Assembly: GCA_038215155.1 (NCBI GenBank)
Contig: JBBQRF010000001.1
Span: forward strand, 54,042-118,041
Source of the DNA: Minisyncoccia bacterium
Lineage (GTDB): Bacteria; Patescibacteriota; Minisyncoccia; Phycocordibacterales; CAJBRS01
DNA: 64,000 nt
Reading direction: 5' to 3'
Under the pieces are notes generated by a model, which ran no database searches, was not told the origin of the DNA, and saw nothing but the letters and a program-made list of their open reading frames with translations. The translations under genes and the position numbers were made by a program. Of this stretch, positions 2,849-57,151 are shown one piece after another (position 1 is the first letter of the stretch; each line of letters begins with the position of its first letter).

Positions 2849-3556
2849 TTATCTTCGAAAGATTTTGAAAAACCAGCCGAAGAGACTAACTCCACTTGCA
2901 TGAGCGTCGATGAAAGCTTGTAAGGATGCTTGCTCTCTAACCAATACTTGAATTTGAGTGTTCAATTCTGCCTTTATAGCAACGTCAGTAGAAGAAGCAG
3001 CTAAAGCTCTTAATTGATTGATGGTTACTGTGGTGTTGGCTACCGCTGCTCTAAGGAGACTTAAACTAGTTTCATCTGTTCCAAAAAAGAAAACATGAAG
3101 TCGGCCTTGTCCTTCAAGATGGGACATTGCCGCAACAGTGCTTGAGCTTGAATGATCTTGATCTTCAGCAATGACACGAACCTTGGCTCCTATTCCTTTA
3201 TCGTGATCAGCAATATTAAGGAGATGCTGAACGAAACTAGCAACAACGCTTCGGTGCATGTCAGCACTTTCCTCACCCTGTGTTTCTACATCATTATCAT
3301 TCTTATCTTCGTTTCGTACCGTGGTAGTACTAGAATTATGTCCCGACACTTCGTCGCGTTCTCCACGATCTTTATGGCGAGAGTTTAAGTCACCATCAGC
3401 ATCTATTTCTTCAGAGGTATTTGCAGAATCTTCACCATTAGTAATCTTTAGTTGTGAATTCACGGAGGTTCGGAAATTTGTTTCCGCAAAAGCAAAACTG
3501 GAACTTATCAAACTAAGCATAAGGGCTAGGGATAAGAAAAGACTTGTTTTTTTCAT
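2849..3556 (-). CDS. secreted hypothetical protein (signal peptide)
   Basis: 235 aa; N-terminal MKKTSLFLSLALMLSLISSSFAFA signal-peptide-like segment; acidic, Ser/Asp-rich mature part with a predicted helical C-terminus. No recognisable catalytic motif. Confidence 0.5.
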   Translation of the reverse strand: MKKTSLFLSLALMLSLISSSFAFAETNFRTSVNSQLKITNGEDSANTSEEIDADGDLNSRHKDRGERDEVSGHNSSTTTVRNEDKNDNDVETQGEESADMHRSVVASFVQHLLNIADHDKGIGAKVRVIAEDQDHSSSSTVAAMSHLEGQGRLHVFFFGTDETSLSLLRAAVANTTVTINQLRALAASSTDVAIKAELNTQIQVLVREQASLQAFIDAHASGVSLFGWFFKIFRR

Positions 3557-3687: not shown

Positions 3688-5028
3688 ATGAAATCTTATT
3701 TACATTCATTGGGCAAGTGGCCGATCTGGCATAATTACAGTCCTACAGAATGGGTCTTAATAAGTGTCGGCGCACTTGCATTATTTTATATTGCTCTAAA
3801 TTTTTTTACATCTTTTGGAGATCAGACTCCTCCTCCTAAAATTGACTCTTCTGTCAGCTTAAATGATATCGGCCAATTTGAGGAAACTTTAGCGCATGCT
3901 GTAAATTCCAATATTTATGATATGCCTTCCGATTCGGTAAAAATATTAACTAATGGTGGTGAATTCCTGCCCGACTTATTGTCTGAAATCCAAACGGCAA
4001 AAAGTTCAATTTCAATCACCGATTATATTTGGGACGGTGGCAGTTTCGGCAACACATTATTTGAAGCATTAATTAAGAAAGCTCAGGAAGGGGTAGAGGT
4101 CAAAGTGCTGGTTGACGGGACTGGTGGGCATAAGGCAGATACAGACCTAATTAAAAAACTAGAACAGGCCGGAGGCAAGTTCGCTCGATTTCGTCCTGTC
4201 AGGTGGTGGAATTTAAATCGTATTGATCGCCGAACCCATGTACGAGATTTTGTCATTGATAATAAAACTGCCTATGTGGGAGGCATTGCTATTTCCGATT
4301 TATGGCTTGGAGATGCCACCACTTCCAAATCTTGGCATGATTTTATGTTTAAGTCGGGTGGATTATTAGCAGATCAATCCGCCAAGATTTTTAATGTAAT
4401 GTGGAGCAACACTACTGGAGAAATTTTACAAACATCATCCAACACAGAACTTGGTGGGAAACTAGCTCCAAAAGGCTCTAGTTTTGTCCCACTATTCAGT
4501 GTCCCCTCACCTGATATGTCTCACAATATGGAACATTTCATTTGGCTTTCAATGGGTGCAGCTGACCACTCCATCCATATTGAAAATCCATATCTTGTGC
4601 CGAGTAAATCTTTGCTTCAGATGCTGGAAAATAAAGCTCGAGAAGGTGTGGACGTAAAAATTATTGTCCCGGGGAAAAACACCGATGCTAAATACACTAG
4701 GTGGGCTACCCAGTCTTTCTACTCAGAGTTATTAAAGGCGGGGGTAAGAATTTTTGAATACCAACCTTCCCGTATACATGCCAAAATTATGGTGTTTGAT
4801 AATAAATGGAGCATTGTAGGGTCAGCTAACCTAGACAATCGTTCCAGTCAGATTAACCTAGAGTATGTAGTAGGTATTGCAGATCCTAAATTTGCCACTA
4901 ATTTAGAAGATAAGTTTCAAGAGGATTTAACCAAGACCAAAGAGATTACCAAGGAGAATTGGAAAGGTACCTCAACATTCAAACTTCCTTTTGAATTAGT
5001 TTCTAAAATATTTATTAAGCAATACTAA
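3688..5028 (+). CDS. cls: cardiolipin synthase / phospholipase D family protein
   Basis: 446 aa; N-terminal TM helix; two HKD motifs, HVRDFVIDNKTAYVGGIAISD and HAKIMVFDNKWSIVGSANLDNRS. Confidence 0.85.
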   Translation: MKSYLHSLGKWPIWHNYSPTEWVLISVGALALFYIALNFFTSFGDQTPPPKIDSSVSLNDIGQFEETLAHAVNSNIYDMPSDSVKILTNGGEFLPDLLSEIQTAKSSISITDYIWDGGSFGNTLFEALIKKAQEGVEVKVLVDGTGGHKADTDLIKKLEQAGGKFARFRPVRWWNLNRIDRRTHVRDFVIDNKTAYVGGIAISDLWLGDATTSKSWHDFMFKSGGLLADQSAKIFNVMWSNTTGEILQTSSNTELGGKLAPKGSSFVPLFSVPSPDMSHNMEHFIWLSMGAADHSIHIENPYLVPSKSLLQMLENKAREGVDVKIIVPGKNTDAKYTRWATQSFYSELLKAGVRIFEYQPSRIHAKIMVFDNKWSIVGSANLDNRSSQINLEYVVGIADPKFATNLEDKFQEDLTKTKEITKENWKGTSTFKLPFELVSKIFIKQY

Positions 5029-6704: not shown

Positions 6705-7844
6705 TTATTTTTTATTTTCATAGTATTTCTGTCCATGAAGTTTTTCTGGCAATAAATCTTCTTTAGTATAGCGATCGTATCCTTTATGATAACCGAGATC
6801 TTTCATTAATTTAGTCGGGGCATTGCGAATCTTGAGAGGAACAGGCAGATTGCCAAATTTCCTGACGTCTACCAACGCTCGGCCGTATGCTTCGTATGAT
6901 GCCTTGGACTTTGGTTGACGGCATAAATAAACGGTGCCGTCAGCCAAATTAATAGCACATTCCGGCAAACCAATAACTTCTACTGCTTTAAAAACTTCGT
7001 TCGCCACTACTAATGCAGTAGGGTTGGCCTGCCCGACATCCTCCGATGCAAAAATAACCATTCGTCGTGCAATGAATTTAGGCTCCTCCCCTGACTCAAT
7101 CATTCGTGCCAAGTAATAAAGCGCTGCATCGGGCTGACCGGCGCGCATGCTCTTAATAAAGGCGCTAATAGTGTTGTAGTGTTCATCCCCTTTCTTATCA
7201 AAGCGTAGAAATTTATTTTGCATAGTCTCGGCCAAAGTCTCCAGCGTAATTTCTTCATATAATTTTGAAACTGCCTCGAGCATGGTAATAGCTTGCCGAG
7301 CATCTCCGTTTGCCATAGCTACCAACCACTCTTTCGCTTTATTAGAAAGTTTTAACTTTGTCCGATCAATTATCTTAAACATCTCATTCTCACTTAATTC
7401 ATTCAGTACAAAAACGCGACAACGGCTAAGTAGGGCTGGTATCACTTCAAAACTCGGATTTTCTGTAGTCGCCCCAATTAAAGTAATATCGCCACTCTCC
7501 ACATAAGGCAAAAGAAAATCCTGCTGAGTCTTATTGAAACGATGAATCTCATCTAAAAATAAAAGTTTTGGCTTCGAGAGTAAGGTTTTCTTTCCCAACA
7601 ATTGTTTAATATCTTCCTTGCCTGCCGAAACTGCGGAAAGATGATGGAATTCCACATCCAATGCGGCCGCATATATTTTAGCCAGGGTAGTTTTACCTAC
7701 ACCGGGTGGACCCCATAAAATAAAAGAGAAAAGGTGCTTTTCTTGTATAGCCATGCGCAACGGCTTATTGGGGGCCACCAAATGACCTTGCCCAACAAAT
7801 TCCTTTAGACTGCGAGGTCTAATGCGGGAAGCTAACGGTTCCAT
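6705..7844 (-). CDS. rarA: replication-associated recombination protein A (AAA+ ATPase)
   Basis: 379 aa; GPPGVGKTT Walker A, LFLDEIHRFNKTQQD Walker B/sensor region, and a MgsA-like C-terminal domain. Confidence 0.9.
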   Translation of the reverse strand: MEPLASRIRPRSLKEFVGQGHLVAPNKPLRMAIQEKHLFSFILWGPPGVGKTTLAKIYAAALDVEFHHLSAVSAGKEDIKQLLGKKTLLSKPKLLFLDEIHRFNKTQQDFLLPYVESGDITLIGATTENPSFEVIPALLSRCRVFVLNELSENEMFKIIDRTKLKLSNKAKEWLVAMANGDARQAITMLEAVSKLYEEITLETLAETMQNKFLRFDKKGDEHYNTISAFIKSMRAGQPDAALYYLARMIESGEEPKFIARRMVIFASEDVGQANPTALVVANEVFKAVEVIGLPECAINLADGTVYLCRQPKSKASYEAYGRALVDVRKFGNLPVPLKIRNAPTKLMKDLGYHKGYDRYTKEDLLPEKLHGQKYYENKK

Positions 7845-8017
7845 AGCAAGGCACTCCTCTTTAGAACAAAGAAAGAGTCACTAGCTTGTTATGAAACTTC
7901 AGAAAGATCTGGAAGTGATTAGCAAAGCGATGTTTCGCTCGTTTTAATCGCTTCTCCTTTGTTTGATAATCGTAATACATCATATTATTTAAGACGTGAA
8001 TAGTTAATAAACCTTAC

Positions 8018-8587
8018 TTAGTATTTTCTAATGACTGCCCGGACGATTGCCGCAATTCTCATTTGATACTGGGGATAAATATTTGAATATTTCTTATTGG
8101 CTGGCTCGAGATAGGCCTGTCCACCCTTATCGTAGCGTAGGTATTTCATTGTCCATCCTCCATCGACTTCAGCAATGACGATATCGCCTGCTTTAGCCGT
8201 ACCTTTTCGATCCACTAGGACCATGTCCCCTTCTTCAATGTGAGCTTCAATCATGGAGTCACCTTTTACCTCTAAAAGATAGGAAGAATCTTTATTTTCC
8301 ACTAAAAAATCTTCTAAATTCAAAGTATTATCCTTGATCTCATCAGCTGTCTCGGGAATACCGGCTTCCACTACTCCTAATAAAGGAATTTCATTAAAGA
8401 TGTTGTTGAGAGTAATTCTCCCCATCGCATCCTTGTTCAAAACCTCTTCTTCTACCAGGCGATTAATTAATTTAAAAACAGCATTCTTAGATTTGAAGCC
8501 GAGAAGATTCATAATCTCTTTATAGCCTGGCAAGCGGCCGTGTTTTTGATAGAAAGCGACAATTTTATCTTTGTATTCTATTTTCAT
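8018..8587 (-). CDS. lexA: LexA repressor (S24 peptidase)
   Basis: 189 aa; N-terminal wHTH; C-terminal GDSM (Ser nucleophile) and downstream Lys dyad; cleavage-site-like VEAG region. Confidence 0.9.
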   Translation of the reverse strand: MKIEYKDKIVAFYQKHGRLPGYKEIMNLLGFKSKNAVFKLINRLVEEEVLNKDAMGRITLNNIFNEIPLLGVVEAGIPETADEIKDNTLNLEDFLVENKDSSYLLEVKGDSMIEAHIEEGDMVLVDRKGTAKAGDIVIAEVDGGWTMKYLRYDKGGQAYLEPANKKYSNIYPQYQMRIAAIVRAVIRKY

Positions 8588-8588
8588 A

Positions 8589-8798
8589 TTAGAAAAGGGT
8601 TAGGCCAAAATTGCTACTAAGTTTCTGCCCCAGCCACGAACTCCCTTCGCTTTGAAGACGGTTGAACCGTGATAGTAATATCTTGTGACGAGTGGAAAGA
8701 TTCCTATATCCTCGACCTTCAATAATAGCCAGATCAATCTGCTCATTTAGCTTGTCTAATTCATAGCGGATTCTTGTTAATAAGGCGTTTTTTGACAT
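8589..8798 (-). CDS. small helical hypothetical protein co-transcribed with lexA
   Basis: 69 aa from ATG 8798 (MSKNALLTRIRYELDKLNEQIDLAIIEG...). Its stop TAA is 1 nt before the lexA ATG. The track's longer N-terminus would read through the upstream terminator hairpin and is rejected. Confidence 0.4.
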   Translation of the reverse strand: MSKNALLTRIRYELDKLNEQIDLAIIEGRGYRNLSTRHKILLSRFNRLQSEGSSWLGQKLSSNFGLTLF

Positions 8799-8811
8799 GA
8801 ATATATTATAG

Positions 8812-8827
8812 GTGAACGATAGTTCAC
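8812..8827. promoter_or_regulatory. candidate LexA (Cheo-type) box overlapping promoter
   Basis: Perfect palindrome GTGAAC-GATA-GTTCAC (GAAC-N4-GTTC core). On the minus strand it is immediately followed by TATAAT and then ATATTC-ATG of the small ORF. Confidence 0.45.
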
Positions 8828-8861
8828 CTGTCAAATAGATGGCTGTGGATAACTTTGAAAA

Positions 8862-8894
8862 AGCAAAAGGTCCTGCGCAAGCGCAGGACCTTTG
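8862..8894 (-). terminator. rho-independent terminator after the 8911..9249 gene
   Basis: ggtcctgcgc / gcgcaggacc perfect stem; T-rich tail on the minus strand (ttttgctttttc). Confidence 0.6.
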
Positions 8895-8910
8895 AATCAA
8901 AACTAACTAA

Positions 8911-9249
8911 TTATCGGAAGAATCCTTCGATTTCCTCGCGAATGTCCTCGACGGTACTGAGATCAGCAACTCCGTCGCTCAAAAAGCGAACGGCTCGAGA
9001 AGATCCATTTTCACCACTACCGACGCGGTGAAAGCGACCATTCGTGATTACTACCTTTCGAACTGTTATCACGGATACTGACAGTCCTTTCATATTTTCT
9101 TTTTGCTGATTTCGCGCCGAACGAGGACCATCAAGGATTTGATCTTTGAACGGAACGACAGATTTAGGTTTATTTGAAGTACTTTTTCTGGCAGCCTTCT
9201 GGTTTTTGCCTTTTCGAGATGGAGTAATTTTTCCAGCCATTCTAAACAT
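8911..9249 (-). CDS. hypothetical basic protein
   Basis: About 113 aa from ATG 9249 (alternative ATG at 9240; the track start at 9291 is TTG). N-terminal Lys/Arg-rich region. No confident family assignment. Confidence 0.4.
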   Translation of the reverse strand: MFRMAGKITPSRKGKNQKAARKSTSNKPKSVVPFKDQILDGPRSARNQQKENMKGLSVSVITVRKVVITNGRFHRVGSGENGSSRAVRFLSDGVADLSTVEDIREEIEGFFR

Positions 9250-9274
9250 ACAATACCAGGTAAATAGGAAATAG

Positions 9275-9493
9275 TCAATGGCTCTGGACAATACCTCGGA
9301 TGAAATTGAGAAGTAATAGAAAATCTTGCCAAATTATTTTAGTCAGTCCCCATACGTAGATGAAAAAATCTCGAACTGATTGCTTGGCCAAGAGACCGCT
9401 TAAACTAATATTTAAAAAATGAATAATGAGCAGAGCAATAATTAAGACGACAATGATTTGAATGATGCCTTGTTTATTTGGTCGTTTTTTCAT
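9275..9493 (-). CDS. small putative membrane protein (uncertain)
   Basis: About 72 aa (MKKRPNKQGIIQIIVVLIIALLIIHF...) with one or two hydrophobic helices. It overlaps the asnB stop region. Weak support. Confidence 0.2.
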   Translation of the reverse strand: MKKRPNKQGIIQIIVVLIIALLIIHFLNISLSGLLAKQSVRDFFIYVWGLTKIIWQDFLLLLNFIRGIVQSH

Positions 9494-11321
9494 TGACAAA
9501 GACATTATACCAAAGGGCGAGAAGGTAGAGAACGTATATTTTCCTAGAATTATCCGCTTTTTTGTTAAGGTGATTTTCGGAAAGCTGGCGAATATATTTC
9601 AGACTAAATTTAGTTGAAATATATTCATTTTCGACAATTGTACTTAAAATTTCCTTGGCCGTAGTTTCATTTTGGAGCCAGTTGCGGATTGGTGTTGGGA
9701 AGCCGAGTTTTTTGCGGCCTGCTGTCTCCTTGGGCAGGATGCTTTCAAATGCCTTGCGCAAAATGTATTTGGTTTGACCATTTTTGTATTTCAATTCTTC
9801 AGGAATGCGTCCGGATATTTTAGCAATTTCAATGTCAAGAAAAGGCACACGTAGCTCCAGTGAATTAGCCATTGTCATCTTATCTGCTTTGGCCAAGATG
9901 TCGCCTGGCAGCCAAGTATTTATATCGATGAATTGCATTTTGGCAGAATCGAGCTGAATTTTCACTTGATCATAGACGGGGTTTAGATCTAGTTTCTCGT
10001 TAGGATTGGCTTTCCATAGTTCGGCAATTTCTTCAGGGTGAAAGATGTAAGCATTGCCAATGTAGCGTTCTCGGATAGGAATGAGAACGCGATTCAAATA
10101 ATTTTTGCCGTAGAAATTCAAAGGTAGATGAGCAAAAAAGTGGATGAGTGATTTGGGTAGCCATTTTAATTTATTAAGGGCAAATGGTTCGCGATAAATA
10201 TTGTAGCCGCCAAATAGTTCATCACTTCCCTCGCCCGAAAGCACCACCTTGACGTGCTTTCGGGCTTCTCTAGCCAAGAAGTAAAGCGCCACCGCTGAGG
10301 GGTCGGCGACCGGCTCGTCGAAATGCCATACCACTTTAGGCATTTCTTGGAAATATTCTTCTGGCGAAATATTAATTTCAGTGTGATCAGTACCTAGAAG
10401 ATCGGCCATTATTTTAGCTTCACTCTGCTCGCTGACTTCTTCAAATCCAATGGTGAATGTTTTGAGATTTCCGCCTTGCTCTTTGCGAACTTTACTCATC
10501 ATGGCAACAATGATGGCGCTATCAATACCGCCAGACAGAAAGGCACCCACGGGAACATCAGCAATCATATGAGCCCGTACTGAGTTTTCAATTCCTTCTT
10601 GAATTTCCTTTTTTAGTAGGATCTCATCAATATTTTTTTCCCGAAACTGATAACCCCAATATTTCTCCTCTTTAATACTTTGGTCGGCTAAATTGATCTT
10701 TAAAAAGTGACCGGGTAAAAGTTTGTGAATATTGCGAAAAAAAGTTTCTTTTAAAGGATTGTATTGGTAAGAAAGATAGTTATAGATGGCGCGCTCATTT
10801 AATTCCGGTTTAAAATCTGGATGAAGGAGCAGGCACTTCATCTCTGAAGCAAATCCTTTCAACTTCCAATCGTCAAAATAATAATAAAGTGGCTTAATAC
10901 CGAAATAATCTCGCGCGACGAACATCTCGTCGCGCCCTAAATCATAAATAGCAAAAGTGAACATTCCTCGAAGTCGGAGTAGCATTTCTTCGCCGTGTTG
11001 CTCATATAAGTGAATTAGAGTTTCAGTATCGCTTTCTGTTGTAAGAGTGTGTCCTTGCAGTATTAATTCTTCTCGAAGTTCCCGATAATTGTAGATCTCA
11101 CCATTAAATACAATACAAATAGTTTTATTTTCATTCCAGATCGGTTGATCGCCAGTGGAAAGATCTATAATGCTCAAGCGCCGCATACCGATAGAAGCTT
11201 TCGGGCCATCAAAAAAACCATCATCGTCAGGCCCGCGATGATGAATTCTCTCAACCATTTCTCTAATTATCTTTTCTTTGTTTGGAGTGTTTGCTCCGAC
11301 GATTCCAGCAATGCCGCACAT
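9474..11321 (-). CDS. asnB: asparagine synthase (glutamine-hydrolysing)
   Basis: 615 aa; N-terminal MCGIAGI (Cys2 nucleophile of an Ntn amidotransferase); SGGIDSA PP-loop. Confidence 0.92.
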   Translation of the reverse strand: MCGIAGIVGANTPNKEKIIREMVERIHHRGPDDDGFFDGPKASIGMRRLSIIDLSTGDQPIWNENKTICIVFNGEIYNYRELREELILQGHTLTTESDTETLIHLYEQHGEEMLLRLRGMFTFAIYDLGRDEMFVARDYFGIKPLYYYFDDWKLKGFASEMKCLLLHPDFKPELNERAIYNYLSYQYNPLKETFFRNIHKLLPGHFLKINLADQSIKEEKYWGYQFREKNIDEILLKKEIQEGIENSVRAHMIADVPVGAFLSGGIDSAIIVAMMSKVRKEQGGNLKTFTIGFEEVSEQSEAKIMADLLGTDHTEINISPEEYFQEMPKVVWHFDEPVADPSAVALYFLAREARKHVKVVLSGEGSDELFGGYNIYREPFALNKLKWLPKSLIHFFAHLPLNFYGKNYLNRVLIPIRERYIGNAYIFHPEEIAELWKANPNEKLDLNPVYDQVKIQLDSAKMQFIDINTWLPGDILAKADKMTMANSLELRVPFLDIEIAKISGRIPEELKYKNGQTKYILRKAFESILPKETAGRKKLGFPTPIRNWLQNETTAKEILSTIVENEYISTKFSLKYIRQLSENHLNKKADNSRKIYVLYLLALWYNVFVNEKTTK

Positions 11322-15123: not shown

Positions 15124-16224
15124 TTAGATAACTTTAAGATTTTGAGAACGCGAAACGTTTAGGATGATGCCGACCTCGGCCAAAGTAAAAAATAGGGCCG
15201 TTCCGCCGTGACTAATAAAAAGTAAAGGGATGCCCGAAACCGGCAAAATGCCGAGCATTGAGGCAATATTGACGAAAGACTCGGCTAATATCAGTATAAC
15301 AAGTCCTATGACGAGCAGTCTACCGAAGAGATCTGTCGTGCGTGAAGCAATCCGAAGACCTCGAAATGTAAAGAATAAAAATAGGAAAATGATTAAGGAG
15401 CCTCCAATGAAACCGAATTCTTCAGCGGCCACAGCAAAAATGGAATCTCCAATTGGTTCAGGGAGATAATTGAATTTTTGAATACTTTGTCCAAAACCTC
15501 TGCCGGTAATTTGTCCCGTGCCTATGGCAATCTGCGATTGTTGAATCTGGTAGCCGCTACCCTGAGCATCATTAGCGGGGTGAATGAAAGTGTCTATTCG
15601 CTGTTTAATGTAGGGTCGGGAAAAATATAGAACTCCCACGCCAAGAATACCGATGGCTCCTAAAATAAAAATATCTCGCCATCGGCACCCCGCAACTACA
15701 AACATTGAGAGTCCAGCAATGAATATGACCCCAAAAGTGGCTGTATCAGGCTCAGACAGAATAAGTGCAGCGGCAATAGCTACTAGAATGGCAAACGGGA
15801 TAGTGCCGTGTTTAAGAGTGGTGACTTTTTGCTTTACGCCAGAAAGCCAAGCGGCAAAATAAATAACAAAGCCTACTTTAAAAATCTCTGCGGGTTGAAA
15901 AGAAAAATTTCCAACATCTACCCAACGGCGAGCGCCCCCAAATTTCATTCCAATATGAGGAATGAAAACTAAGATAACAGCAAAAATTGAAGCGATAAAA
16001 ATAAAAAGCGAATACTTTCGCCAAACCTTATATGGAATTCTGCTATTAATAAAACAGGCAATGGAGCCGCCGATAATGCCTAAAACTATTTGGTTGATTA
16101 AAACCGAGCGAAAGGTATTTCCTTTACCAGCAAGAAGTCCGAGTGATGCAGAGCTAAAAATAAAAAGTCCCGCAATGACTAAAATGAAAGTAGAAATTAA
16201 AAATGGCTTATCAACGGTTTTCAT
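15124..16224 (-). CDS. ftsW: SEDS-family lipid II flippase/polymerase (FtsW/RodA)
   Basis: 366 aa; about 10 TM helices; SEDS motifs (GxxRRW-like GGARRWVDVG, PEPIGD-like region); position between mraY and murG. Confidence 0.85.
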   Translation of the reverse strand: MKTVDKPFLISTFILVIAGLFIFSSASLGLLAGKGNTFRSVLINQIVLGIIGGSIACFINSRIPYKVWRKYSLFIFIASIFAVILVFIPHIGMKFGGARRWVDVGNFSFQPAEIFKVGFVIYFAAWLSGVKQKVTTLKHGTIPFAILVAIAAALILSEPDTATFGVIFIAGLSMFVVAGCRWRDIFILGAIGILGVGVLYFSRPYIKQRIDTFIHPANDAQGSGYQIQQSQIAIGTGQITGRGFGQSIQKFNYLPEPIGDSIFAVAAEEFGFIGGSLIIFLFLFFTFRGLRIASRTTDLFGRLLVIGLVILILAESFVNIASMLGILPVSGIPLLFISHGGTALFFTLAEVGIILNVSRSQNLKVI

Positions 16225-17279
16225 TAGCTAATGATGGCGATCATGGCGCCGATTAATGCAAAAACGAACGAAATAATCCAAAAGCGCATAGTCACCTTAT
16301 AGGAAGGCCAGCCCAATGCTTCAAAATGGTGATGAAGCGGAGCAACTATAAATACCTTACGATTAAAATAGACTTTAGAAATCCGCTGAATAATTACGGA
16401 AAGTGAGGTAATAAAAAGAGGAAAAGCGATCAGGGGTAATACTAAAACGGAATTAGTTAGGAAAGCTATGATAGAAAGAGTAACCGTTAAGCCAAGCATA
16501 CCTGTCTCACCCATGTAGAAGCGAGCCGGCGGAATATTAAACCAAAGAAAAGCCAGTATTCCACCAGTGATTACTGCGCAAAAAGCCGCCAGGTCAATTT
16601 GGTGATGAACGAAGGCAATAATCATGTAAGCGCCGAAAGAAGATGCCATTACTCCCCCAGCCAATCCATCAATTCCATCGATCACTGATCCGGAGAAGAC
16701 GGCCAGCATGACTATGATGAAAAATGGAATAAAAGAAAGTCCGAGATTAACGTCTTGCCAAAATGGTACATGGACGGTAACTGTCTGCAGCTTAAAGAAA
16801 AACCACCATGCCCCGATGGACCCTAAAAAAAGAACTATTAATACCCGGAGTCTTCGATTCAGGCCGTCACTAAATTGAATATTCTTGCTGTAAATTTGTA
16901 ATAGATCGTCTACCAAACCAACAATAGAAGCAAAGATTAAAGTGAAAAGTGGCAATAGGGTTTGATTTTGGCTAAGAAAGTTTAATTTAATATTTAGCTT
17001 GCTGGGAAAGACAAAGGAATTAATGGAGAGCAATAAAGTAGTAATTAAGACAGAGAGCCAGACAATTACTCCGCCTATTCGAGGAGTGGAGGTCTCCCCT
17101 TGGTGATTATGAATCTTTTGAAATTCCGGAGTGACCACGTCCTTGTTTGCGGCACTTCTCGAGCGGTTTTTCCACATTCTCCGTGAGTAAAGGATGTTAG
17201 AGATGCTGGGAGTAATTAACAAACCGATGAAAAAAGATAATAGAGCGGGCAGAAAAACCTTTACAGTACTTAGTAACAT
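16224..17279 (-). CDS. mraY: phospho-N-acetylmuramoyl-pentapeptide transferase
   Basis: 351 aa; GLVDDL and APLHHHFE motifs; polytopic membrane protein. Confidence 0.9.
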   Translation of the reverse strand: MLLSTVKVFLPALLSFFIGLLITPSISNILYSRRMWKNRSRSAANKDVVTPEFQKIHNHQGETSTPRIGGVIVWLSVLITTLLLSINSFVFPSKLNIKLNFLSQNQTLLPLFTLIFASIVGLVDDLLQIYSKNIQFSDGLNRRLRVLIVLFLGSIGAWWFFFKLQTVTVHVPFWQDVNLGLSFIPFFIIVMLAVFSGSVIDGIDGLAGGVMASSFGAYMIIAFVHHQIDLAAFCAVITGGILAFLWFNIPPARFYMGETGMLGLTVTLSIIAFLTNSVLVLPLIAFPLFITSLSVIIQRISKVYFNRKVFIVAPLHHHFEALGWPSYKVTMRFWIISFVFALIGAMIAIIS

Positions 17280-18826: not shown

Positions 18827-19561
18827 TTAATTATATTTTGGGACACTAACATTTTGAGTTTCCATATGAATATCCTCAAAAAGAGCGCTCTGGGTGACAT
18901 CGATAATACCTTGCTTTACTAATTCAAGCATGGCTAGAAAACTAACAATGACGTTTATCTTGTCTTCCTTACTAATTTTTGTAAATTCACGGAAACTCAT
19001 TTTTAATGAATTCTGAATACGTTTAGTGAGGCTATCTATCATTTCCTCTAGGCTAATGACTTTTTCAACGATCTTTTTTGGTAAGATCTCCGTTTTTGGC
19101 AGATTTGCTAAAAGAGACTGCATAGCTATCACCAGAGTTTTCATTGATAGATCATGGGCTGGTGAAAAAACTGGATTTATAATCTTAGATGTGGACTTTG
19201 GGAAAATTATTTTCCTGCCGAAATGTTCTCGTAAACTTGCGGTGGCTTCTCGAAGGATTTTATAAACTCGCAATCTTTCTTGGAGCTCTTCGATACTCAT
19301 TTCTTCTTCTTCTGAAAGATTGAGGGCCGGCAATAAAGATTTGGATTTAATTAGCACTAAAGTGGAGGCAATTAAAATGAAATTAGCGCTGTCCGGAATA
19401 GAAAATTGAGGTAATTTCTTCAGATACTCCAAATAATCATCAGTCACTTTGGCCAGGGAGATATCGTTAATCAAGAACTTGCGCTTCTCAATTAAGCTCA
19501 ACAGAAGATCTAAAGGGCCTTCAAATTGTTCGGTTTTAATGGCAAAAGCAGTTTTTTCCAC
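18827..19561 (-). CDS. scpA: segregation and condensation protein A
   Basis: 244 aa; FEGPLDLLLSLIEKRKFLINDISLAKVTDDYL kleisin N-terminus. Confidence 0.85.
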   Translation of the reverse strand: MEKTAFAIKTEQFEGPLDLLLSLIEKRKFLINDISLAKVTDDYLEYLKKLPQFSIPDSANFILIASTLVLIKSKSLLPALNLSEEEEMSIEELQERLRVYKILREATASLREHFGRKIIFPKSTSKIINPVFSPAHDLSMKTLVIAMQSLLANLPKTEILPKKIVEKVISLEEMIDSLTKRIQNSLKMSFREFTKISKEDKINVIVSFLAMLELVKQGIIDVTQSALFEDIHMETQNVSVPKYN

Positions 19562-31073: not shown

Positions 31074-32153
31074 TTAAGCGTGAGTTGAATGAGTAATGTC
31101 TGTGGGTGAAATATAACTTCGAATATCTAAATCAGTACTTTCTCCAGAGACGACTTTCTTCAGCATGGCAGTTACGACGACGCCGCCTAAAATTGCGGCG
31201 GAGCCAAGCTGAGGCCAAGAAACAAGTTCCTTGGAAATTACACGGGGTACAGCCATCATCATGTTGGGGTCCACTTTGTCGGGTCCTCCGACAATATCTC
31301 CGATAATCATTTTGCCCGCCATTTCTTTAGTGAAAGGGCCAGCAGCCAATTTCTTTTTAAAATATTCGACGTCTTTGCCCCATATCTTGGTGTTGCCTAA
31401 ATCGTATCTTTCAACATGGAGAACTACGCCGTCGCCATTATCGGTCACCATTAATACGGCTTTTTTATATTTTATGGCAAGGAGGCGGGCATGAATTTTA
31501 AATGGCATATCATCAATTTCCTCAACAATGCAGTCAATCTTCCCCGCTTTCAATAATTCTTCTAAGTTATCTTCGTTTACGCCATCTTTCAATAACGTTA
31601 CTTCCGCAAAAGGATTGTCTTCGTAGATGCGGCGAGCGGCAATGATGGTCTTGTTGATACCTATCTGATGAGCACCTGCTAAGATTCTGTTTAAATTAGT
31701 GGTGTCGAGCTCGTCGAAATCAGCTAAGACGATCTTATTTGAGATTCCAGCTTGAGTCATGACGAAAGCAATGTTAGAGCCAACACTCATTCCAAGGACA
31801 GCTACTTTATAATCCCGTAATTTTTTCTGAAGATCGGGTGATATTAGTCCGTCGTTTCTGTTAGTCTTCAGGCGATAGTAGTTGTCGGCTTTAACTGTTT
31901 TGATTAAATGATGATTCCATGGGAAATAAACGTGAATAAAATCGTCCTTTTTATCATCGGTGTATTTTTTGAAGTCATCGGTCTTGTAGACTTCTTCTTT
32001 GTCTTGGCCGATGAATGAATGATTATCAATAAAGAACAATTCTTTTAGCTGACGATCAAAAGCGTCAACAACAGTGATATAGGAGTGCTGATTTAGAAAT
32101 TCTTCTACCTTCTCCGAGCTTTCAAAATAAAGCGGTTTTTCAGAAGTGTCCAT
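31074..32153 (-). CDS. E1-like (ThiF/MoeB/MccB superfamily) adenylyltransferase with N-terminal extension
   Basis: 359 aa; KVAVLGMSVGSNIAFVMTQAGI...IVLADFDELDTTNLNR matches the E1 nucleotide-binding fold (GxGxxG ... D.D.V..SNLNRQ). It has about 110 aa N-terminal and about 100 aa C-terminal extensions and no CxxC zinc motif. Confidence 0.7.
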   Translation of the reverse strand: MDTSEKPLYFESSEKVEEFLNQHSYITVVDAFDRQLKELFFIDNHSFIGQDKEEVYKTDDFKKYTDDKKDDFIHVYFPWNHHLIKTVKADNYYRLKTNRNDGLISPDLQKKLRDYKVAVLGMSVGSNIAFVMTQAGISNKIVLADFDELDTTNLNRILAGAHQIGINKTIIAARRIYEDNPFAEVTLLKDGVNEDNLEELLKAGKIDCIVEEIDDMPFKIHARLLAIKYKKAVLMVTDNGDGVVLHVERYDLGNTKIWGKDVEYFKKKLAAGPFTKEMAGKMIIGDIVGGPDKVDPNMMMAVPRVISKELVSWPQLGSAAILGGVVVTAMLKKVVSGESTDLDIRSYISPTDITHSTHA

Positions 32154-33650: not shown

Positions 33651-34859
33651 ATGAAAGAATTTCATCTGGAAGACATTCCTGTACGGTTTCACCAAAAAAA
33701 AGATGCTCCAATTTATATCAGAGTTCAGTTTTTGGCTGGAAGTCGCTTTGACGAAAAGGAAGGTACTGCCCACTTTCTAGAACATATGATGTGCGCAGGC
33801 AGCCAAAAATTTACCACCAAGAATTTATTGGCTGAATACATAGAAGCTGTGGGTGGAAATTTCGCCTTAAGCACTAGTAGTGATTATATTAATATTGATA
33901 TCCAGGTTCCGACAAAAGATGAGATGAAGATTGCGGTGGTGATATTAGATGAAATGGTGAATCATTCGCTTTTTGAGCCCGCAACCTTAGAGACTGAGAG
34001 GGGCTCAATCTTGTCCGAACAAGTTATAGCCAAAAATGCACAACGTTCTTATATTCATACAGTATTCAAGAAATTAGCCTATCAAAAAACTGATATTGCA
34101 AAAAATGTCCTCGGAACCAAGGAGTCTGTGATGACTATAACCACGGAGGATCTAAAAAAACACAGGACCAAATATATCCATAGGCAGACTTTAAAAATCT
34201 TAGTTGTGGGAGATATTAGTGAGGAAGAACTCATAAAGGAAATGCGAGGTATAAATTGGGCAACTGGTCCATGTTTTATCGTGGTTAATTTACCCATAGT
34301 AGCAAATCAATTATTTGTCCTTGAAATTTATAATTCAAAAGAGGCTACCCTTCGAGCCGGTTTTAGATTAAGTACTTTTGATATTAAGAATCGAATCTGT
34401 GGGGATATTCTCGCGGAGTTTTTAGGCAGTAGTCGAAGTGGCATTTTAAGTCAAGAACTGCGATATAAAAGAGGTCTGATCTATTCCGCTTCCGCACACC
34501 ATTTTCAATCGATTGATGGGGGTACTTTTTCTGTTACTACCTCCACCGAGGTTAAAAATTTTGCCGAAGTTTTGTCCGTCATTAAACAGATCATAGAAGA
34601 TCTGATCGCTCAGGGAATTCCCGCCTCCACATTGAAATATATAAAATCTAAAATATTAAAATCTATGAAAATAGATTTACAGACCTCTAAAGCTTGGGTG
34701 AATTATATTGAGAATTATGATTTAGAAGAAACAAGCAGATACTTAGAGGATATAAGTGAAGGGGATATAAAAAATTATATCAATCAAAATTTTGCTATAG
34801 ATAAATTTTTTGTGGCCGTGTGCGGTCCAGAAGATCTTAGGATGATTTTAGAAAAGTAG
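33651..34859 (+). CDS. M16-family zinc peptidase (insulinase/pitrilysin-like, single chain)
   Basis: 402 aa; inverted zinc motif HFLEHM (HxxEH) near the N-terminus; downstream Glu-rich LETERGSILSE. Confidence 0.75.
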   Translation: MKEFHLEDIPVRFHQKKDAPIYIRVQFLAGSRFDEKEGTAHFLEHMMCAGSQKFTTKNLLAEYIEAVGGNFALSTSSDYINIDIQVPTKDEMKIAVVILDEMVNHSLFEPATLETERGSILSEQVIAKNAQRSYIHTVFKKLAYQKTDIAKNVLGTKESVMTITTEDLKKHRTKYIHRQTLKILVVGDISEEELIKEMRGINWATGPCFIVVNLPIVANQLFVLEIYNSKEATLRAGFRLSTFDIKNRICGDILAEFLGSSRSGILSQELRYKRGLIYSASAHHFQSIDGGTFSVTTSTEVKNFAEVLSVIKQIIEDLIAQGIPASTLKYIKSKILKSMKIDLQTSKAWVNYIENYDLEETSRYLEDISEGDIKNYINQNFAIDKFFVAVCGPEDLRMILEK

Positions 34860-45521: not shown

Positions 45522-46832
45522 TTAAGGGTTTACCGTTTCCACCTTGATACTGGCCGCTTTACTAGGAAACGACCAGCGCCAGAAAGGCTTAAAGACTACC
45601 TCGGCTTTTTTAATGGAGGCGTAGTTGGCGAGGACTGTGGAAAGATCGCTTCGAGATATACCTTTCAGGTCATTTTTTAACTTATCCACATCCACCACTG
45701 ATACAACAGCTAATTGTCCTTCTAATTTGAAACTGAGCTGGTTGGGAGATTTAGGATCATATCCTTTTGGATCTGTGAAATTAAAGGTTAAATTTTCAAT
45801 TCCTGAAAAACTACTGCTAGCTAAGCTAATAGAAAAAGCATTGGCGAGATATTTAGATATTTGATTTTTGTCCAAGACGACAGCATAGGCGGTGGCACTT
45901 TCTTTTACGGTGACTTTTTTGTCCGTACTAGTGCCATTGCCGAGAGGGGTAAAAATAATTGTTAGAGCATTTGGATAGAGGATAAAGTTATCGGGTTTTT
46001 GGCTGTTGGCTTGCGCGAGTATTTCCGCGCGCAAGTTTGATTCAATTTGTGTTTTAGCAACTGCTAAGTCAGCGGCGGAAACAGTCTTGCGCGTACCGAC
46101 GAAGCCACCGGAGAGTGGAGTTTTGGATCGAGCGTAAAAACCCTGGGCCTTTGGAGTGCCTTGAAAACCAGGAATAGTAAAATCTTTTAAACCAACATTA
46201 TATTCTTCTCCGGGTGCATCGGCATAGAGAGTGGCTTCGGCAGTACCTGGAGTAATTTTTCCATTGACCGTAGCTTGTCCTGGGACTGTAACGTCTTTAT
46301 CTATTCTAAATATCAATCCTTCTGGTGTTTTAAAACGCGTGGTGGCTATCAGAGTTTGAGGTTGGCTATTGTAGTTATTGTAAATAATAATATCTCCTGA
46401 CGCCTTGTCGCTTCCTGTTGTATCACCACTGGAAGGCGCTTCTGCTTTCCCCTCTTTCTCCAAAGTAATAACGGCATAAGGCATTGCTCCGTTCGCTGCA
46501 TTTGGATCGCCAATAATAGTTTGATTGACGTTAACGTTCTGACTGTTGGGTGTAACTTTTACATCAGCCCCGGCAAATAGATAAGAAATACCAAAAAATA
46601 AAAATATAATGGCTATTAGCACTAAAGACCATAGACCCGCTCGGCGGGTGCGGTCATTTCTGGGAGCGCTATCGTCGACTGTCCTATTGACCACCGGAGG
46701 GTCGATCGATCTTTCTGGAGCAGGTGCGGGCGCCGGAGAAACCTCCGCTTTTACTCTTCGCGGCGCAGATAAAGGAATATCTCGAATGGATCTTCTTTGA
46801 GGTGGAGTAATGTCTTGAAATTGATTAGCCAT
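45522..46832 (-). CDS. membrane-anchored hypothetical protein with Pro/Ala-rich cytoplasmic N-terminus
   Basis: 436 aa; single TM (LWSLVLIAIIFLFFGISYLF) after an Arg/Pro-rich N-terminus; large beta-rich extracytoplasmic part. No motif. Confidence 0.5.
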   Translation of the reverse strand: MANQFQDITPPQRRSIRDIPLSAPRRVKAEVSPAPAPAPERSIDPPVVNRTVDDSAPRNDRTRRAGLWSLVLIAIIFLFFGISYLFAGADVKVTPNSQNVNVNQTIIGDPNAANGAMPYAVITLEKEGKAEAPSSGDTTGSDKASGDIIIYNNYNSQPQTLIATTRFKTPEGLIFRIDKDVTVPGQATVNGKITPGTAEATLYADAPGEEYNVGLKDFTIPGFQGTPKAQGFYARSKTPLSGGFVGTRKTVSAADLAVAKTQIESNLRAEILAQANSQKPDNFILYPNALTIIFTPLGNGTSTDKKVTVKESATAYAVVLDKNQISKYLANAFSISLASSSFSGIENLTFNFTDPKGYDPKSPNQLSFKLEGQLAVVSVVDVDKLKNDLKGISRSDLSTVLANYASIKKAEVVFKPFWRWSFPSKAASIKVETVNP

Positions 46833-46845
46833 AACTTATTTAATA

Positions 46846-48009
46846 TTAACCTAACTTGTTCGGCTTAAAAAGGGTTTGCTGCACAAAAATGCCAATACTC
46901 GCTAAGGACGAATCGAGTTGTTTTTTATTAAAATCGATGAATTCTACGAAATCCAGGGCGGAAACGACCCGTACATTACTTGAATTCGCCCCAAAAGAAA
47001 ATTGACTGAGATCTTCTCGTTTAAAGATGTTGGAGAAAAGGGACTCCATTTGGTTTTGGCTAATAAGATACGATGAAGTCGGCAAAGAAACCCCTCCCGA
47101 AAGTACCGTAAGGGCAGAGGTTAAGTTTTGCTGCCATTCTTTTTCAAATTCAGAAATAATTTTTACGATTTTCTCATTTATACCTTTTTCTACATTTCCT
47201 TGTTTGTAAAGTTTTATTAAAGAGGCGGCCACTGCTGGGCTAACTCTCATATCACCTTGCATTAGATCTAATAACTTTGAAAAACCGATGGGTACCGAAA
47301 TGGTCTCGTGCAAAACATTTTTCTTTATTAGTGAAATTTCCGTCACTAACCCCGTAACGTTTAACAATAGAAAGTCATTTGCTTCTTTTAAAACGTCGCG
47401 AATGGCTACAAAAGAAACGAGTGCCAGGGTGTTGATGTGGACTCGCTGATATGGCAGGTGGGTTGAAATATTTTTTTGAAGAGCATTTATAAATCTTTTC
47501 TCGCCAAAACTTTGGACGACAGAAATATTTATGGTGTTTGCTTTCTTATTTAACGGCGCAGCGGTAACATATCCATTCAAGGAAATATCAATTATTTTAT
47601 TTTCCAATAATACGAGTTCCTCTGGATAATTTTTAAGGTTCTCTTTTTCACCGTTTGACAGCAGACTTTCAATTGTCTCTTCTTTTACGGTAAGGGGCTG
47701 TTCCGATGTCGTCTTAAAGGTCTTAGTCCAAGAATGATACCAGGGTGAAGCCACCACAACGAAAATATCGCTTATTTTGTGAGGATCAAGTTGATTCTCC
47801 TGGAGGTGTTTAGCCATTTTCTGGGTAATCTTGTCCAGGCGACGCAGGATTGCGCCCTCAAGCTCCACCTTTCCGAGGTTGGAATCGGCCGTCAGCTCTT
47901 CTATTTCTATATTTAATATTTTAGGAACTTCTAAATAAGGATAAGTTACTAAGGCACTTTTCACTAAACTGTCGCCAATATAAAAGAGAAGAGCGTGCCT
48001 ATCATTCAT
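46846..48009 (-). CDS. actin-like (ASKHA-fold) ATPase-domain protein, FtsA/PilM-like (tentative)
   Basis: 387 aa; N-terminal LLFYIGDSLVKSALV (phosphate-1-like) and LLLNVTGLVTEISLI (phosphate-2/DxG-like). Remote similarity only. Confidence 0.35.
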   Translation of the reverse strand: MNDRHALLFYIGDSLVKSALVTYPYLEVPKILNIEIEELTADSNLGKVELEGAILRRLDKITQKMAKHLQENQLDPHKISDIFVVVASPWYHSWTKTFKTTSEQPLTVKEETIESLLSNGEKENLKNYPEELVLLENKIIDISLNGYVTAAPLNKKANTINISVVQSFGEKRFINALQKNISTHLPYQRVHINTLALVSFVAIRDVLKEANDFLLLNVTGLVTEISLIKKNVLHETISVPIGFSKLLDLMQGDMRVSPAVAASLIKLYKQGNVEKGINEKIVKIISEFEKEWQQNLTSALTVLSGGVSLPTSSYLISQNQMESLFSNIFKREDLSQFSFGANSSNVRVVSALDFVEFIDFNKKQLDSSLASIGIFVQQTLFKPNKLG

Positions 48010-54976: not shown

Positions 54977-55922
54977 TGGCTATATGCTCTTTTAAAGTGG
55001 TGGCGTAATGCATATTGCCGCTTTTATCAGAGATAAAATAATAGAAAGGTGTATCCGTGGGATAGAGGGCAGCAGTAATGGTATCTAACCCTGGATTGGA
55101 AATGGGAGTAGGGGGGAGACCCCGGTGTCTGTAAGTATTATATGGAGAATTAATTTTCAAATCAGCCGCCGTTAATTCTGCTGAACTTTTACCATTAATG
55201 TATTTGAACGTGGCGTCCACTTGAAGTGGAGTGCCGTCCGTAATTCTCTTCCACAAAATACCAGCCACAATCTTCCTATCGGCACTAGTCTTCGCCTCCC
55301 CCTCCAGAATGGAGGCCATAGTAATAATCTCATCCACCGAATGGGTAGATGAGGCCACTGCACCACTCAAGGTATTGATCTTCTGGTCAAAAGTATTCCG
55401 CATCATGGAAATTACCTCCGCAGGAGGCACTGTGGGAATAAAAAAATAAGTCTCGGGAAATAAATATCCTTCCTTGTCTGTAGCAAGATTTAAAAACTCT
55501 TCCTTATCAAATAAATTAAATCTATTTTTGTAAATATTAGCCATCTCTTTCACACTCACCCCTTCCGGAAGAGTTACCTTTATAGTAACGATGCCATAAT
55601 CTCCCTGGTTAATTCGACGAGCAACTTCAAACAAGCTATTGGAGTGCTGAAAAAGATAGTAACCCGCCACAACCTTATGTTCGCCCCCCATGAAAATCAC
55701 AAGATTAGTAAGCCAAAATGGAGAGCTAATGATTCCATTATTATAGAGTTCCCGCGCTACAGACTGAACACTTTGACCGCTCTCCACTCTAATTGTTGAG
55801 TCGGGCTTAAAATTAGAAGGCGTCTGAAAAAATATCTTAAAAAAAAGGAAAAGTAAAACACAAATAAATAATACTCCGTACAATCCCAGACGTTCTAAGA
55901 TTTTCAATATTTTTTCCCTCAT
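54957..55922 (-). CDS. mltG: endolytic murein transglycosylase MltG (YceG family)
   Basis: 321 aa; N-terminal TM; C-terminal YceG signature (…PYNTYRHRGLPPTPISNPG…FYYFISD…). Confidence 0.85.
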   Translation of the reverse strand: MREKILKILERLGLYGVLFICVLLFLFFKIFFQTPSNFKPDSTIRVESGQSVQSVARELYNNGIISSPFWLTNLVIFMGGEHKVVAGYYLFQHSNSLFEVARRINQGDYGIVTIKVTLPEGVSVKEMANIYKNRFNLFDKEEFLNLATDKEGYLFPETYFFIPTVPPAEVISMMRNTFDQKINTLSGAVASSTHSVDEIITMASILEGEAKTSADRKIVAGILWKRITDGTPLQVDATFKYINGKSSAELTAADLKINSPYNTYRHRGLPPTPISNPGLDTITAALYPTDTPFYYFISDKSGNMHYATTLKEHIANVKKYL

Positions 55923-57151
55923 ATTGGAAGATTAGCCGGAGCGTCGGCTTTCTTAGCAGGCAATCGGTCAAAGCTAGGCGTGCCAGCCACTTCACCTGGG
56001 AAGTGAAAGATGGTGGCCAATTCTTCTGTTGTCATGATGAAGGGTTCGTGATGATCCATGAAAGGCGGCTCAAAAGCTCCGCGTTCTTTATAAGCGTCTA
56101 GCATGTGTTGCTCCATTCGATTTCGCCGCCTTCTCATAGTATTTTTAAATGGCGAAATCCAGCCAAAAAGTTTTACCATGTCTTTACCAAAATCATCATG
56201 GTCGGTAAACCATCCCAAGCTAATGCTGTTGAGATGGTCAGAGGAGTATTGTCTGAAACTGCCAATTAAGCCGCTAATGCCAAGATGATTATTGAAAATA
56301 TCCTCATGGGCAATATAGATACCGCGAATACAGCATTCAAATGGAAACTTAGCCAAATTTCTTTCCAAAACCATCATTACTTCTTGTTGGGCTTTGGTGG
56401 GGTTCGGGCGTCCTTTAGCTTCTTTGTCGGTGCTTTCAGTAGTTTCTTTTCTGATTTTCTGCACTTCGGCCTTCACTTCTTCTTTCCATTCTCGACTAGG
56501 ACCCTGGAGAACCCGGCCCTCTTTCCAACCTTCTTGTTTGTGAGCTTGAATAATTATTTGAATCCAGCCATATTCATTTTGGTGAAGAGATCCTAAATAT
56601 TCCAGGACAGAAGTAAATGGATCAATTTTAAATTCTTCTTTTGGATTTTCGTCCAAGCCGTAATCAATATAGGTTTTAATAGGATAGACATCCTCTTTCT
56701 TTTTCTTAAAATAGGTTCCCCACATCACCATCTCTTTACCGTGATCAATTATATGAGTGTAATCCTCCACCTCATGAACTTCTACGTTTGGATACTGGGC
56801 GTAAATTTGGGTCTCAATAATATTCTTCCAAGCAGAACGAGTGTAAATATAAAAATGAACCTTTCCTTCTAAAGAAACTAACTCTAAAGAAAACGAGGGG
56901 CGAACTTTGCCGTCAATATAAGTTTCCAAATAAGAGGCGGCTCCGGTTTGAAAAAGGGCAGTGAAGAAAATCTCCATGGCGGCGGGAGATTTAGTTATTT
57001 CTTTTGGTAATTTTAATTCTAAAAGAGTGTAGTTTTGTTTGGCCACAAATTTACTCCGAGTGTAACGGAGCCATAGACGCAAAAAAGCGTATCCCAGAAA
57101 AAGTGGAATACAGAAGACTAAAAGAACATAGACAGCATAAAAAACATTCAT
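55919..57151 (-). CDS. conserved hypothetical membrane-anchored protein
   Basis: 410 aa; N-terminal TM; charged Lys/Glu-rich central region; C-terminal ...TTEELATIFHFPG. Family not recognised. Confidence 0.5.
   Translation of the reverse strand: MNVFYAVYVLLVFCIPLFLGYAFLRLWLRYTRSKFVAKQNYTLLELKLPKEITKSPAAMEIFFTALFQTGAASYLETYIDGKVRPSFSLELVSLEGKVHFYIYTRSAWKNIIETQIYAQYPNVEVHEVEDYTHIIDHGKEMVMWGTYFKKKKEDVYPIKTYIDYGLDENPKEEFKIDPFTSVLEYLGSLHQNEYGWIQIIIQAHKQEGWKEGRVLQGPSREWKEEVKAEVQKIRKETTESTDKEAKGRPNPTKAQQEVMMVLERNLAKFPFECCIRGIYIAHEDIFNNHLGISGLIGSFRQYSSDHLNSISLGWFTDHDDFGKDMVKLFGWISPFKNTMRRRRNRMEQHMLDAYKERGAFEPPFMDHHEPFIMTTEELATIFHFPGEVAGTPSFDRLPAKKADAPANLPI

Follow-up and report, generated by a model that had tools for sequence, protein, structure and literature searches.

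Autoregulation of LexA through a GAAC-N4-GTTC box (the Cheo box of Gram-positive bacteria, e.g., at lexA/dinR of Bacillus subtilis) is well established, and SOS division inhibitors are known from genes placed beside lexA: those for YneA, SosA, ChiZ (Rv2719c), and DivS are divergent from it, and that for SulA lies downstream of it in Pseudomonas. Sda of Bacillus subtilis (Burkholder 2001; Rowland 2004; Ruvolo 2006) is reportedly a small helical hairpin with DnaA boxes at its gene and clearance via its C-terminal tail. A comparative study of the SOS network of Patescibacteria was also published by Sanchez-Osuna, Barbe, and Erill (Environ Microbiol 2017;19:3465). A cell-division inhibitor belongs to the core SOS regulon of Gram-positive bacteria (PMC7739468), and small proteins can act as partners of repressors, as do gp7 of phage GIL01 for Bacillus LexA (PMC4551915) and DdrR for Acinetobacter UmuDAb (PMC7273328, PMC11332147). 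Here, we analyze a lexA locus on a 64,000-nucleotide (nt) stretch of contig JBBQRF010000001.1 (hereafter, the window), from a Minisyncoccia bacterium, in which a small open reading frame (ORF) directly precedes lexA behind a promoter whose spacer is a palindrome of the Cheo type. Considering its regulatory architecture alone, we regard it as highly probable that this locus is the core SOS operon of a member of the Paceibacteria (Patescibacteria) and that it regulates itself; the fuller reading, in which the small protein is in addition an SOS-induced factor that binds another protein, seems to us probable, at a lower level of confidence.

The comparison rests on 80 lexA loci, one per species-level genome, together with the closest relative (L082). 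Around 95 related genomes entered the whole comparison, including 14 further lexA promoters (the L099–L206 set). The genomes behind the compared loci were assembled from metagenomes and carry uncertain labels, and all the locus counts given below ignore phylogeny.

The predicted LexA operator and its promoter

Every feature of the operon lies on the minus strand:

8856..8893, minus strand: intrinsic terminator of the upstream gene, which encodes 110 amino acids (aa) (12-bp stem, folding energy)
8844..8852, minus strand: predicted DnaA box TTATCCACA (perfect 9-mer, conservation in orthologues)
8829..8834, minus strand: -35 hexamer TTGACA (perfect consensus; a TTGAC-type hexamer is kept in orthologues)
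8811..8828, minus strand: predicted LexA operator, the palindrome GGTGAAC-TATC-GTTCACC, i.e., GGTGAACTATCGTTCACC (matrix score, conservation)
8805..8810, minus strand: -10 hexamer TATAAT (perfect consensus)
8798, minus strand: predicted transcription start, the A of the ATG of the small ORF (placed from the -10 geometry)
8589..8798, minus strand: small ORF of 69 aa, a predicted basic helical hairpin (hidden Markov model (HMM), linkage to lexA)
8018..8587, minus strand: lexA, 189 aa (PF00717, catalytic residues, alignment to Thermotoga maritima LexA)
6705..7844, minus strand: rarA/mgsA, a recombination-factor ATPase (MgsA_C and AAA domains)

The original prediction, made from the sequence of the window, had described a perfect palindrome with a GAAC-N4-GTTC core abutting TATAAT, and this is what we found, with arms that extend one base further on each side than it had given. 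Read on the plus strand as GGTGAACGATAGTTCACC (8811–8828), the palindrome is perfect and fills the entire 18-nt spacer, abutting TTGACA on one side and TATAAT on the other, and the promoter so formed is the only one on either strand of the window that matches the sigma-70 consensus at 12 of 12 positions. Between TATAAT and the ATG at 8798 stand six nucleotides (ATATTC); the small ORF ends with a TAA at 8591–8589, followed by a single nucleotide (8588) and by the ATG of lexA at 8587, so that the spacing, the 69-aa length, and the 1-nt junction of the original prediction were all correct. By itself, the motif is not significant in the window, where GAAC-N4-GTTC occurs once against 0.8 times expected and perfect 7-N4-7 palindromes occur eight times against 5.1 expected from shuffles. 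Its significance comes from its exact placement in the promoter spacer and from its conservation across related genomes.

Using a weight matrix built from 73 orthologous operator sites, the operator of the window scores 32.5 bits and is the sole positive site, the next best reaching -0.8. The sites of this matrix were picked by their GAAC/GTTC core and, therefore, independent evidence comes only from the flanks and the positions. The flanks of the half-sites, unused in site selection, carry G in 144/146 and T in 140/146 cases (GT/AC), which gives GTGAAC-N4-GTTCAC as the motif of the clade; the box of the window has TGAAC/GTTCA and not the CGAAC/GTTCG of the Bacillus type. Regarding the positions, a perfect GAAC-N4-GTTC lies within 400–450 nt upstream of lexA in 72 of the 82 loci, always between a -35 of the TTGAC type and a -10 that reads TATA(A/C)T (across the orthologues, the hexamer is TATACT in 50 loci and TATAAT in 19), and the matrix adds seven loci in which the box is farther upstream or carries one change. 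Counted as GTGAAC-N4-GTTCAC, the box is inside the lexA promoter in about 79 of 81 related Paceibacteria loci.

The original prediction also expected other SOS genes to carry this motif, and in the relatives they do; in the window, lexA is the only SOS gene at which the motif could be looked for. Outside lexA promoters, a single site of at least 12 bits was found in 618 kb of loci, upstream of a Y-family polymerase gene (L077:6221), where TTGCTA, AGTGAACGTTTGTTCAC, TATACT, six nucleotides, and the ATG follow one another. A metagenome motif scan with GGTGAACNNNNGTTCACC, aimed at recovering the regulon, gave at least 120 matches; those listed are mostly chance occurrences in unrelated organisms, 11 of them are lexA loci, and the only new non-lexA promoter among the matches listed is that of L195, in which the same box fronts an operon of a UmuD-like gene and a polymerase gene, again with the promoter 6 nt from the start. 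In ten further cases (L014, L040, L042, L052, L065, L067, L070, L072, L079, and L080), the gene immediately after lexA encodes a Y-family (DinB/UmuC-like) polymerase, and around 25 related loci contain a gene for a polymerase of this family. In the window, the LexA-type box is found at lexA only, and the ten largest ORFs are housekeeping genes.

The reading as an SOS operator has its limits. Neither recA nor a Y-family polymerase gene was found in the window, leaving the evidence for the box at other SOS genes to the relatives; recA was not found in any compared locus either, using an approximate Escherichia coli RecA query. Moreover, no binding, cleavage, or start-site experiments on this lineage were found in the literature searched. 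Nevertheless, the shared position in the lexA promoter, the conserved flanks, and the polymerase promoters of L077 and L195 support GTGAAC-N4-GTTCAC as the predicted LexA operator of the clade.

The identity of the downstream gene as lexA, another claim of the original prediction, is well grounded. Its product carries an S24 peptidase domain (PF00717, E = 8.5e-26, 90.4 bits against a cut-off of 23.3), and the Ala75-Gly76 cleavage site, Ser111, and Lys148 are invariant in 24 orthologues. It also matches T. maritima LexA (3k2z) over its full length from residue 10 (E = 4.5e-21), with LLGVVEAG paired with LIGEIRAG and VKGDSM with VKGESM. This 189-aa protein has more than 5,000 relatives, the named ones being LexA of Paceibacterota, Parcubacteria, or Patescibacteria, and LexA identity within the clade is 60–80%. 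Two scores point the other way: the TIGR00498 equivalog gives 105.1 bits, narrowly below its threshold of 110.95 (model positions 15–201 of 203), and the N-terminal domain reaches 15.5 bits with PF01726 (LexA_DNA_bind) against a cut-off of 23.7. Even so, the protein can be read from its sequence as a divergent but clear LexA-type repressor. No Shine-Dalgarno motif precedes the ATG of lexA, and this, together with a start 1 nt past the stop of the small ORF, suggests translational coupling between the two genes.

In the mechanism that we infer from this arrangement, a LexA dimer would bind the GTGAAC-N4-GTTCAC palindrome and, since this palindrome takes up the whole spacer of a promoter of the sigma-70 consensus, bound LexA would block RNA polymerase. 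Upon DNA damage, activated RecA would trigger self-cleavage of LexA at Ala75-Gly76 via Ser111 and Lys148, and the derepressed promoter would fire, with an mRNA beginning at the A of the first ATG. Ribosomes would make the 69-aa protein and then reinitiate 1 nt later on lexA, and the new LexA would shut the operon off again, closing the feedback loop. DnaA, at its box between -54 and -46, would modulate the same promoter.

The small protein and the DnaA box

The -35 element, the DnaA box, and the membership of the small ORF in a large family are features beyond those of the original prediction, which had proposed the small ORF as an SOS-induced helical protein. A single-sequence search with the 69-aa protein retrieved only itself and one relative. 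ORFs of 62–75 aa occupy the same position in the lexA loci and align well, the consensus MSK....l..Ei.kLN..ID.KII.G..Y..EArRHK.L leading into a variable linker and then a hydrophobic tail, and an HMM detects the small gene beside lexA in 72 of the 82 loci (E-values of 1e-18 to 1e-29). In these 72 loci, it is always on the lexA strand and adjoins lexA, upstream in 69 and downstream in 3, the junction consisting of gaps of 0–30 nt or of overlapping stop and start codons. The reversed but still adjacent order is that of L037, L041, and L050 (about 4557–4790) and of the metagenome loci L099 and L165; in these, the small gene stands immediately behind a leaderless lexA, which suggests selection for co-expression and not for a particular order. 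In four out of four look-ups that took the small protein as their starting point, its gene was placed directly before one for an S24 peptidase. A profile search extended the family to at least 893 clusters at 90% identity, all named members being hypothetical proteins, and to 381 representatives at 50% identity, which among the 150 listed are 48–107 aa long and matched in a single stretch. The small ORF is real and conserved, and it is co-oriented with lexA.

A second small ORF, unrelated to the first, lies between the small gene and lexA in L004 (~3770–3980) and L017 (~3300–3505); it starts with MSK(S/N)KILYS..GF.KFR..FGD....

The AlphaFold2 model of the small protein (mean predicted local distance difference test (pLDDT) of 84) has helices at residues 3–27 and 32–61, both with pLDDT above 90, and a low-confidence tail, in agreement with the helical protein originally proposed. 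Fold searches with this model retrieved generic hairpins only. The family is basic (mean isoelectric point of 10.6), the last residue of the tail is F or L in 41 of 59 members, and eight residues do not vary (E13, N18, I21, D22, I25, G28, Y31, and H38). Searches of Pfam, NCBIfam, PHROG, and PDB sequences gave no match to the small protein, and the Pfam matches of 39 members at E-values up to 1 include neither SulA, LysM, or a related family nor DUF896. In the PDB chain sequences, which should include the structures of Sda and gp7, a profile search hit nothing but one unrelated peptide (E = 0.51). Kinship with YnzC/DUF896, an SOS-induced helical hairpin of Bacillus, was considered and rejected (hhalign probability of 0.3%, with an approximate YnzC query). 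So was the idea of the tail as a membrane-targeting amphipathic helix, the hydrophobic moment being not significantly above that of shuffles (mean z = 0.44).

The DnaA box is a perfect 9-mer, TTATCCACA (8852–8844), which lies 9 nt upstream of the -35 and at about -54 to -46 from the predicted start. Of 80 orthologous lexA promoters, 41 have a perfect copy and 70 a copy with no more than a single mismatch; the corresponding background rates, from equally sized segments of the same loci, are 0.0018 and 0.022 per segment. A few boxes are inverted. In the separate set of 14 further lexA promoters, 11 have the box. Distances from the box to the operator center cluster at 15, 21–24, and 32–36 nt, i.e., in classes roughly one helical turn apart, and sequence conservation of the window with L082 sets in precisely at the DnaA box. 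Only two perfect copies of TTATCCACA occur in the 64-kb window and, therefore, the DnaA box is no general promoter element. The box is absent from the promoter of the polymerase operon of L195, and none is visible in the sequence of the L077 polymerase promoter. Leaving the sign of the effect aside, the predicted DnaA box probably adds an input of replication status to the promoter. No description of a DnaA box linked to a lexA promoter was found in the literature searched. The other perfect copy in the window (45682–45690, plus strand) is inside a 436-aa ORF (45522–46832) without a Pfam match.

Regarding function, the small protein most likely acts by binding another protein. Our first choice, which we put forward tentatively and by analogy, is that it would be an SOS checkpoint effector, in position the equivalent of the division inhibitors whose genes adjoin lexA in Gram-positive bacteria; like them, its gene lies beside lexA and would be under LexA control, judging from the operator. 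Its sequence fits a division inhibitor less well, as it has no transmembrane segment (the longest uncharged run of the tail is at most 13 aa), its tail is not significantly amphipathic (mean z = 0.44), and it shows no similarity to SulA, LysM, or other Pfam families. A bolder reading, in which LexA and DnaA would jointly control the promoter and the hairpin family would be a new checkpoint factor coupling damage and replication status to division, initiation, or LexA activity, is somewhat doubtful. The DnaA box accompanies the small gene in 67 of 70 loci against 3 of 9 loci without the gene (Fisher p = 2e-5, ignoring ancestry), an association that, being uncorrected, may carry shared ancestry.

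The constant adjacency and co-orientation of the small gene and lexA, kept even where their order is reversed, would also be expected if the small protein were a partner of LexA, i.e., a co-repressor or a modulator of its cleavage, held in fixed proportion to LexA through translational coupling and leaving the architecture of the operon unchanged. The unusually high LexA identity of 60–80% within the clade would suit a conserved binding interface, the hairpin has invariant polar residues (E13, N18, D22, Y31, and H38) and gp7 (PMC4551915) and DdrR (PMC7273328, PMC11332147) are precedents for such a partnership. However, co-expression with lexA is equally expected of an SOS effector, and no similarity to PDB chains was detected (best E = 0.51). 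Furthermore, L052, L070, L077, and L079, which have no small gene, keep the same operator and promoter and, therefore, LexA would recognize the box without the small protein. We regard a LexA partner as unlikely.

The preference of the DnaA box for promoters of the small gene bears as well on a third possibility, a replication checkpoint factor under both DnaA and LexA, similar to Sda of Bacillus subtilis. The contrast between 67/70 and 3/9 loci, the absence of a box from the L195 polymerase promoter, the lack of a visible one at that of L077, and box positions in classes about one helical turn apart would agree with it, as would a predicted hairpin with a low-confidence hydrophobic tail ending in F or L in 41 of 59 members. 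Nevertheless, DnaA binding is a prediction here, the association between box and gene may reflect shared ancestry only, no PDB chain shows sequence similarity, and there is no evident target such as a sporulation kinase. We consider an Sda-like factor distinctly unlikely and rank it third, after the LexA partner; both come close to the lexA-linked checkpoint effector, which we retain as the tentative first choice.

The predicted transcription start and the surroundings of the operon

With the -10 hexamer six nucleotides from the ATG, the transcript would be expected to start on the A of that codon, and a leaderless mRNA of the small ORF and lexA, as the original prediction implied, is plausible from this spacing. 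We surveyed the 65 non-overlapping ORFs of at least 100 aa in the window. A Shine-Dalgarno-like motif precedes only 8 of them, while a TATAAT-like hexamer stands 6–9 nt before the start in 16 (around a quarter), with a sharp peak at 6 nt (9 ORFs, against around 0.5 per position elsewhere); examples at 6 nt include 9474–11321, 16224–17279, 18827–19561, 31074–32153, 33651–34859, 46846–48009, and 55919–57151. The leaderless implication is thus consistent with the genome-wide peak and with the rarity of Shine-Dalgarno motifs, and the geometry looks ordinary for this genome and no special feature of the operon. In the 79 orthologous operons, the spacing between the -10 and the first start codon has a bimodal distribution: in 16 it is 6–9 nt (the small gene being first in nine and lexA in seven). 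Counting against a leaderless start, the remaining operons have longer leaders, nearly all of 17–60 nt, and such a start is therefore not a conserved property of the operon. No description of leaderless initiation in Patescibacteria was found in the literature searched.

These longer leaders, together with a start site placed by spacing, are what would speak for a transcript that is not leaderless, either starting elsewhere or reaching the ATG at 8798 with a conventional leader from another promoter. This is nonetheless very unlikely, since a strong terminator lies immediately upstream, the promoter is the sole consensus one in the window, its -10 is at exactly the modal spacing of the genome, no Shine-Dalgarno motif precedes the ATG, and the MSK N-terminus of the family fixes the start codon.

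In the leaders of L056, L060, L062, L066, L067, L071, L074, L076, and L203–L206, an (A/G)GTCG motif occurs 6–15 nt downstream of the -10, which may be a shared element of the 5' untranslated region or only shared ancestry; an AGGTCG-like motif is found in 9 of 80 orthologues only and is probably a sub-clade signal.

The upstream terminator, already part of the original prediction, has a 12-bp stem (8893–8866) with seven GC pairs and a loop of four, followed by the T-tract TGCTTTTTCA; its folding energy is -21.7 kcal/mol (z = -4.27), and none of 200 shuffles folds as well. It insulates the operon from upstream transcription. The gene upstream of it (8911–9243, minus strand) encodes a basic protein of 110 aa without a Pfam or NCBIfam match; L082 has a 95-aa gene at the corresponding position. 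On the other side, the 173-nt spacer between lexA and rarA (7845–8017, minus strand) contains no strong terminator and a weak promoter-like site (8007–7979), and read-through from the lexA operon into rarA is possible. This order of genes, with rarA after lexA, is found only in the window, L082, and L018. An Rfam scan of 7700–9500 gave sub-threshold matches only, and the ROSE_3 match in this spacer (22.4 bits against a gathering score of 43) is probably due to chance. A different neighborhood is shared by the Nomurabacteria-type loci L203–L206, in which a dksA/traR-like zinc-finger gene, a comM-like Mg-chelatase ATPase gene, the small gene, and lexA follow one another; downstream, on the opposite strand, an HU gene (PF00216) adjoins lexA in L203 and L205 and lies farther away in L204 and L206.

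That the pair would belong to a prophage or mobile element, as a repressor module similar to CI, and would not be the host SOS regulator, as could be thought from the abundance of S24 peptidase repressors in phages and from a LexA score slightly below the NCBIfam cut-off, is extremely improbable given the housekeeping neighbors (asnB, gltX, rarA, and tRNA synthetase genes), the presence of one copy per locus in nearly every related genome, the linkage to Y-family polymerase genes, the lack of a PHROG match, and a best structural relative that is a cellular LexA aligned over its full length.

Comparison with known systems

LexA self-repression and this type of motif are already known. The small family linked to lexA, the swap of its gene order, and the conserved DnaA box appear undescribed in the literature and databases searched, the text of the 2017 study of the Patescibacteria SOS network aside. 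For a large uncultured lineage, the locus provides a concrete and testable model of an SOS promoter. Within a minimal SOS regulon, the small protein is probably the member about which least is understood. Patescibacteria have genomes of around 1 Mb with few regulators and, therefore, a 65-aa protein whose gene nearly all members retain next to lexA likely matters; its size allows quick tests in heterologous hosts. The predicted DnaA box suggests a single control point for replication initiation and the damage response. If so, the SOS switch of Paceibacteria, organisms in which regulators are very few, would be connected to the replication initiator.

The locus resembles the LexA systems of Gram-positive bacteria, which likewise have a palindrome in the promoter of lexA itself, a self-cleaving S24 repressor, and a Y-family polymerase under the same box. 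In contrast to them, the flanks are here TGAAC/GTTCA, giving a palindrome of 16–18 bp, the box is the exact promoter spacer, lexA is the second of two genes, and the promoter contains a predicted DnaA box. As in Actinobacteria and Deinococcus, whose leaderless mRNAs have the -10 box 6–7 nt before the ATG and no Shine-Dalgarno motif, the first cistron would be leaderless, but here it appears to feed a second, coupled cistron, lexA.

Regarding the small protein, it shares with the division inhibitors encoded beside lexA a small size, restriction to a lineage, LexA control (inferred here), and physical linkage to lexA. Unlike theirs, its gene is co-directional with lexA and usually upstream of it, and the product is predicted to be a soluble basic helical hairpin, with no transmembrane or LysM segment and no homology to them. 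With gp7 and DdrR it has in common a clade-restricted distribution, a small size, and a gene linked to an S24 repressor, physically as well as through its regulation; however, no sequence similarity to gp7 was detected in the PDB chain search, the gene is here chromosomal and class-wide, and an interaction with LexA is hypothetical. Finally, Sda of Bacillus subtilis resembles it as a helical hairpin (62–75 aa here, Sda being smaller) with a DnaA box in the promoter, a hydrophobic C-terminal tail, and induction by damage, which would be expected of the small protein here; it differs in that no sequence similarity was detected and in that the gene described here forms an operon with lexA.

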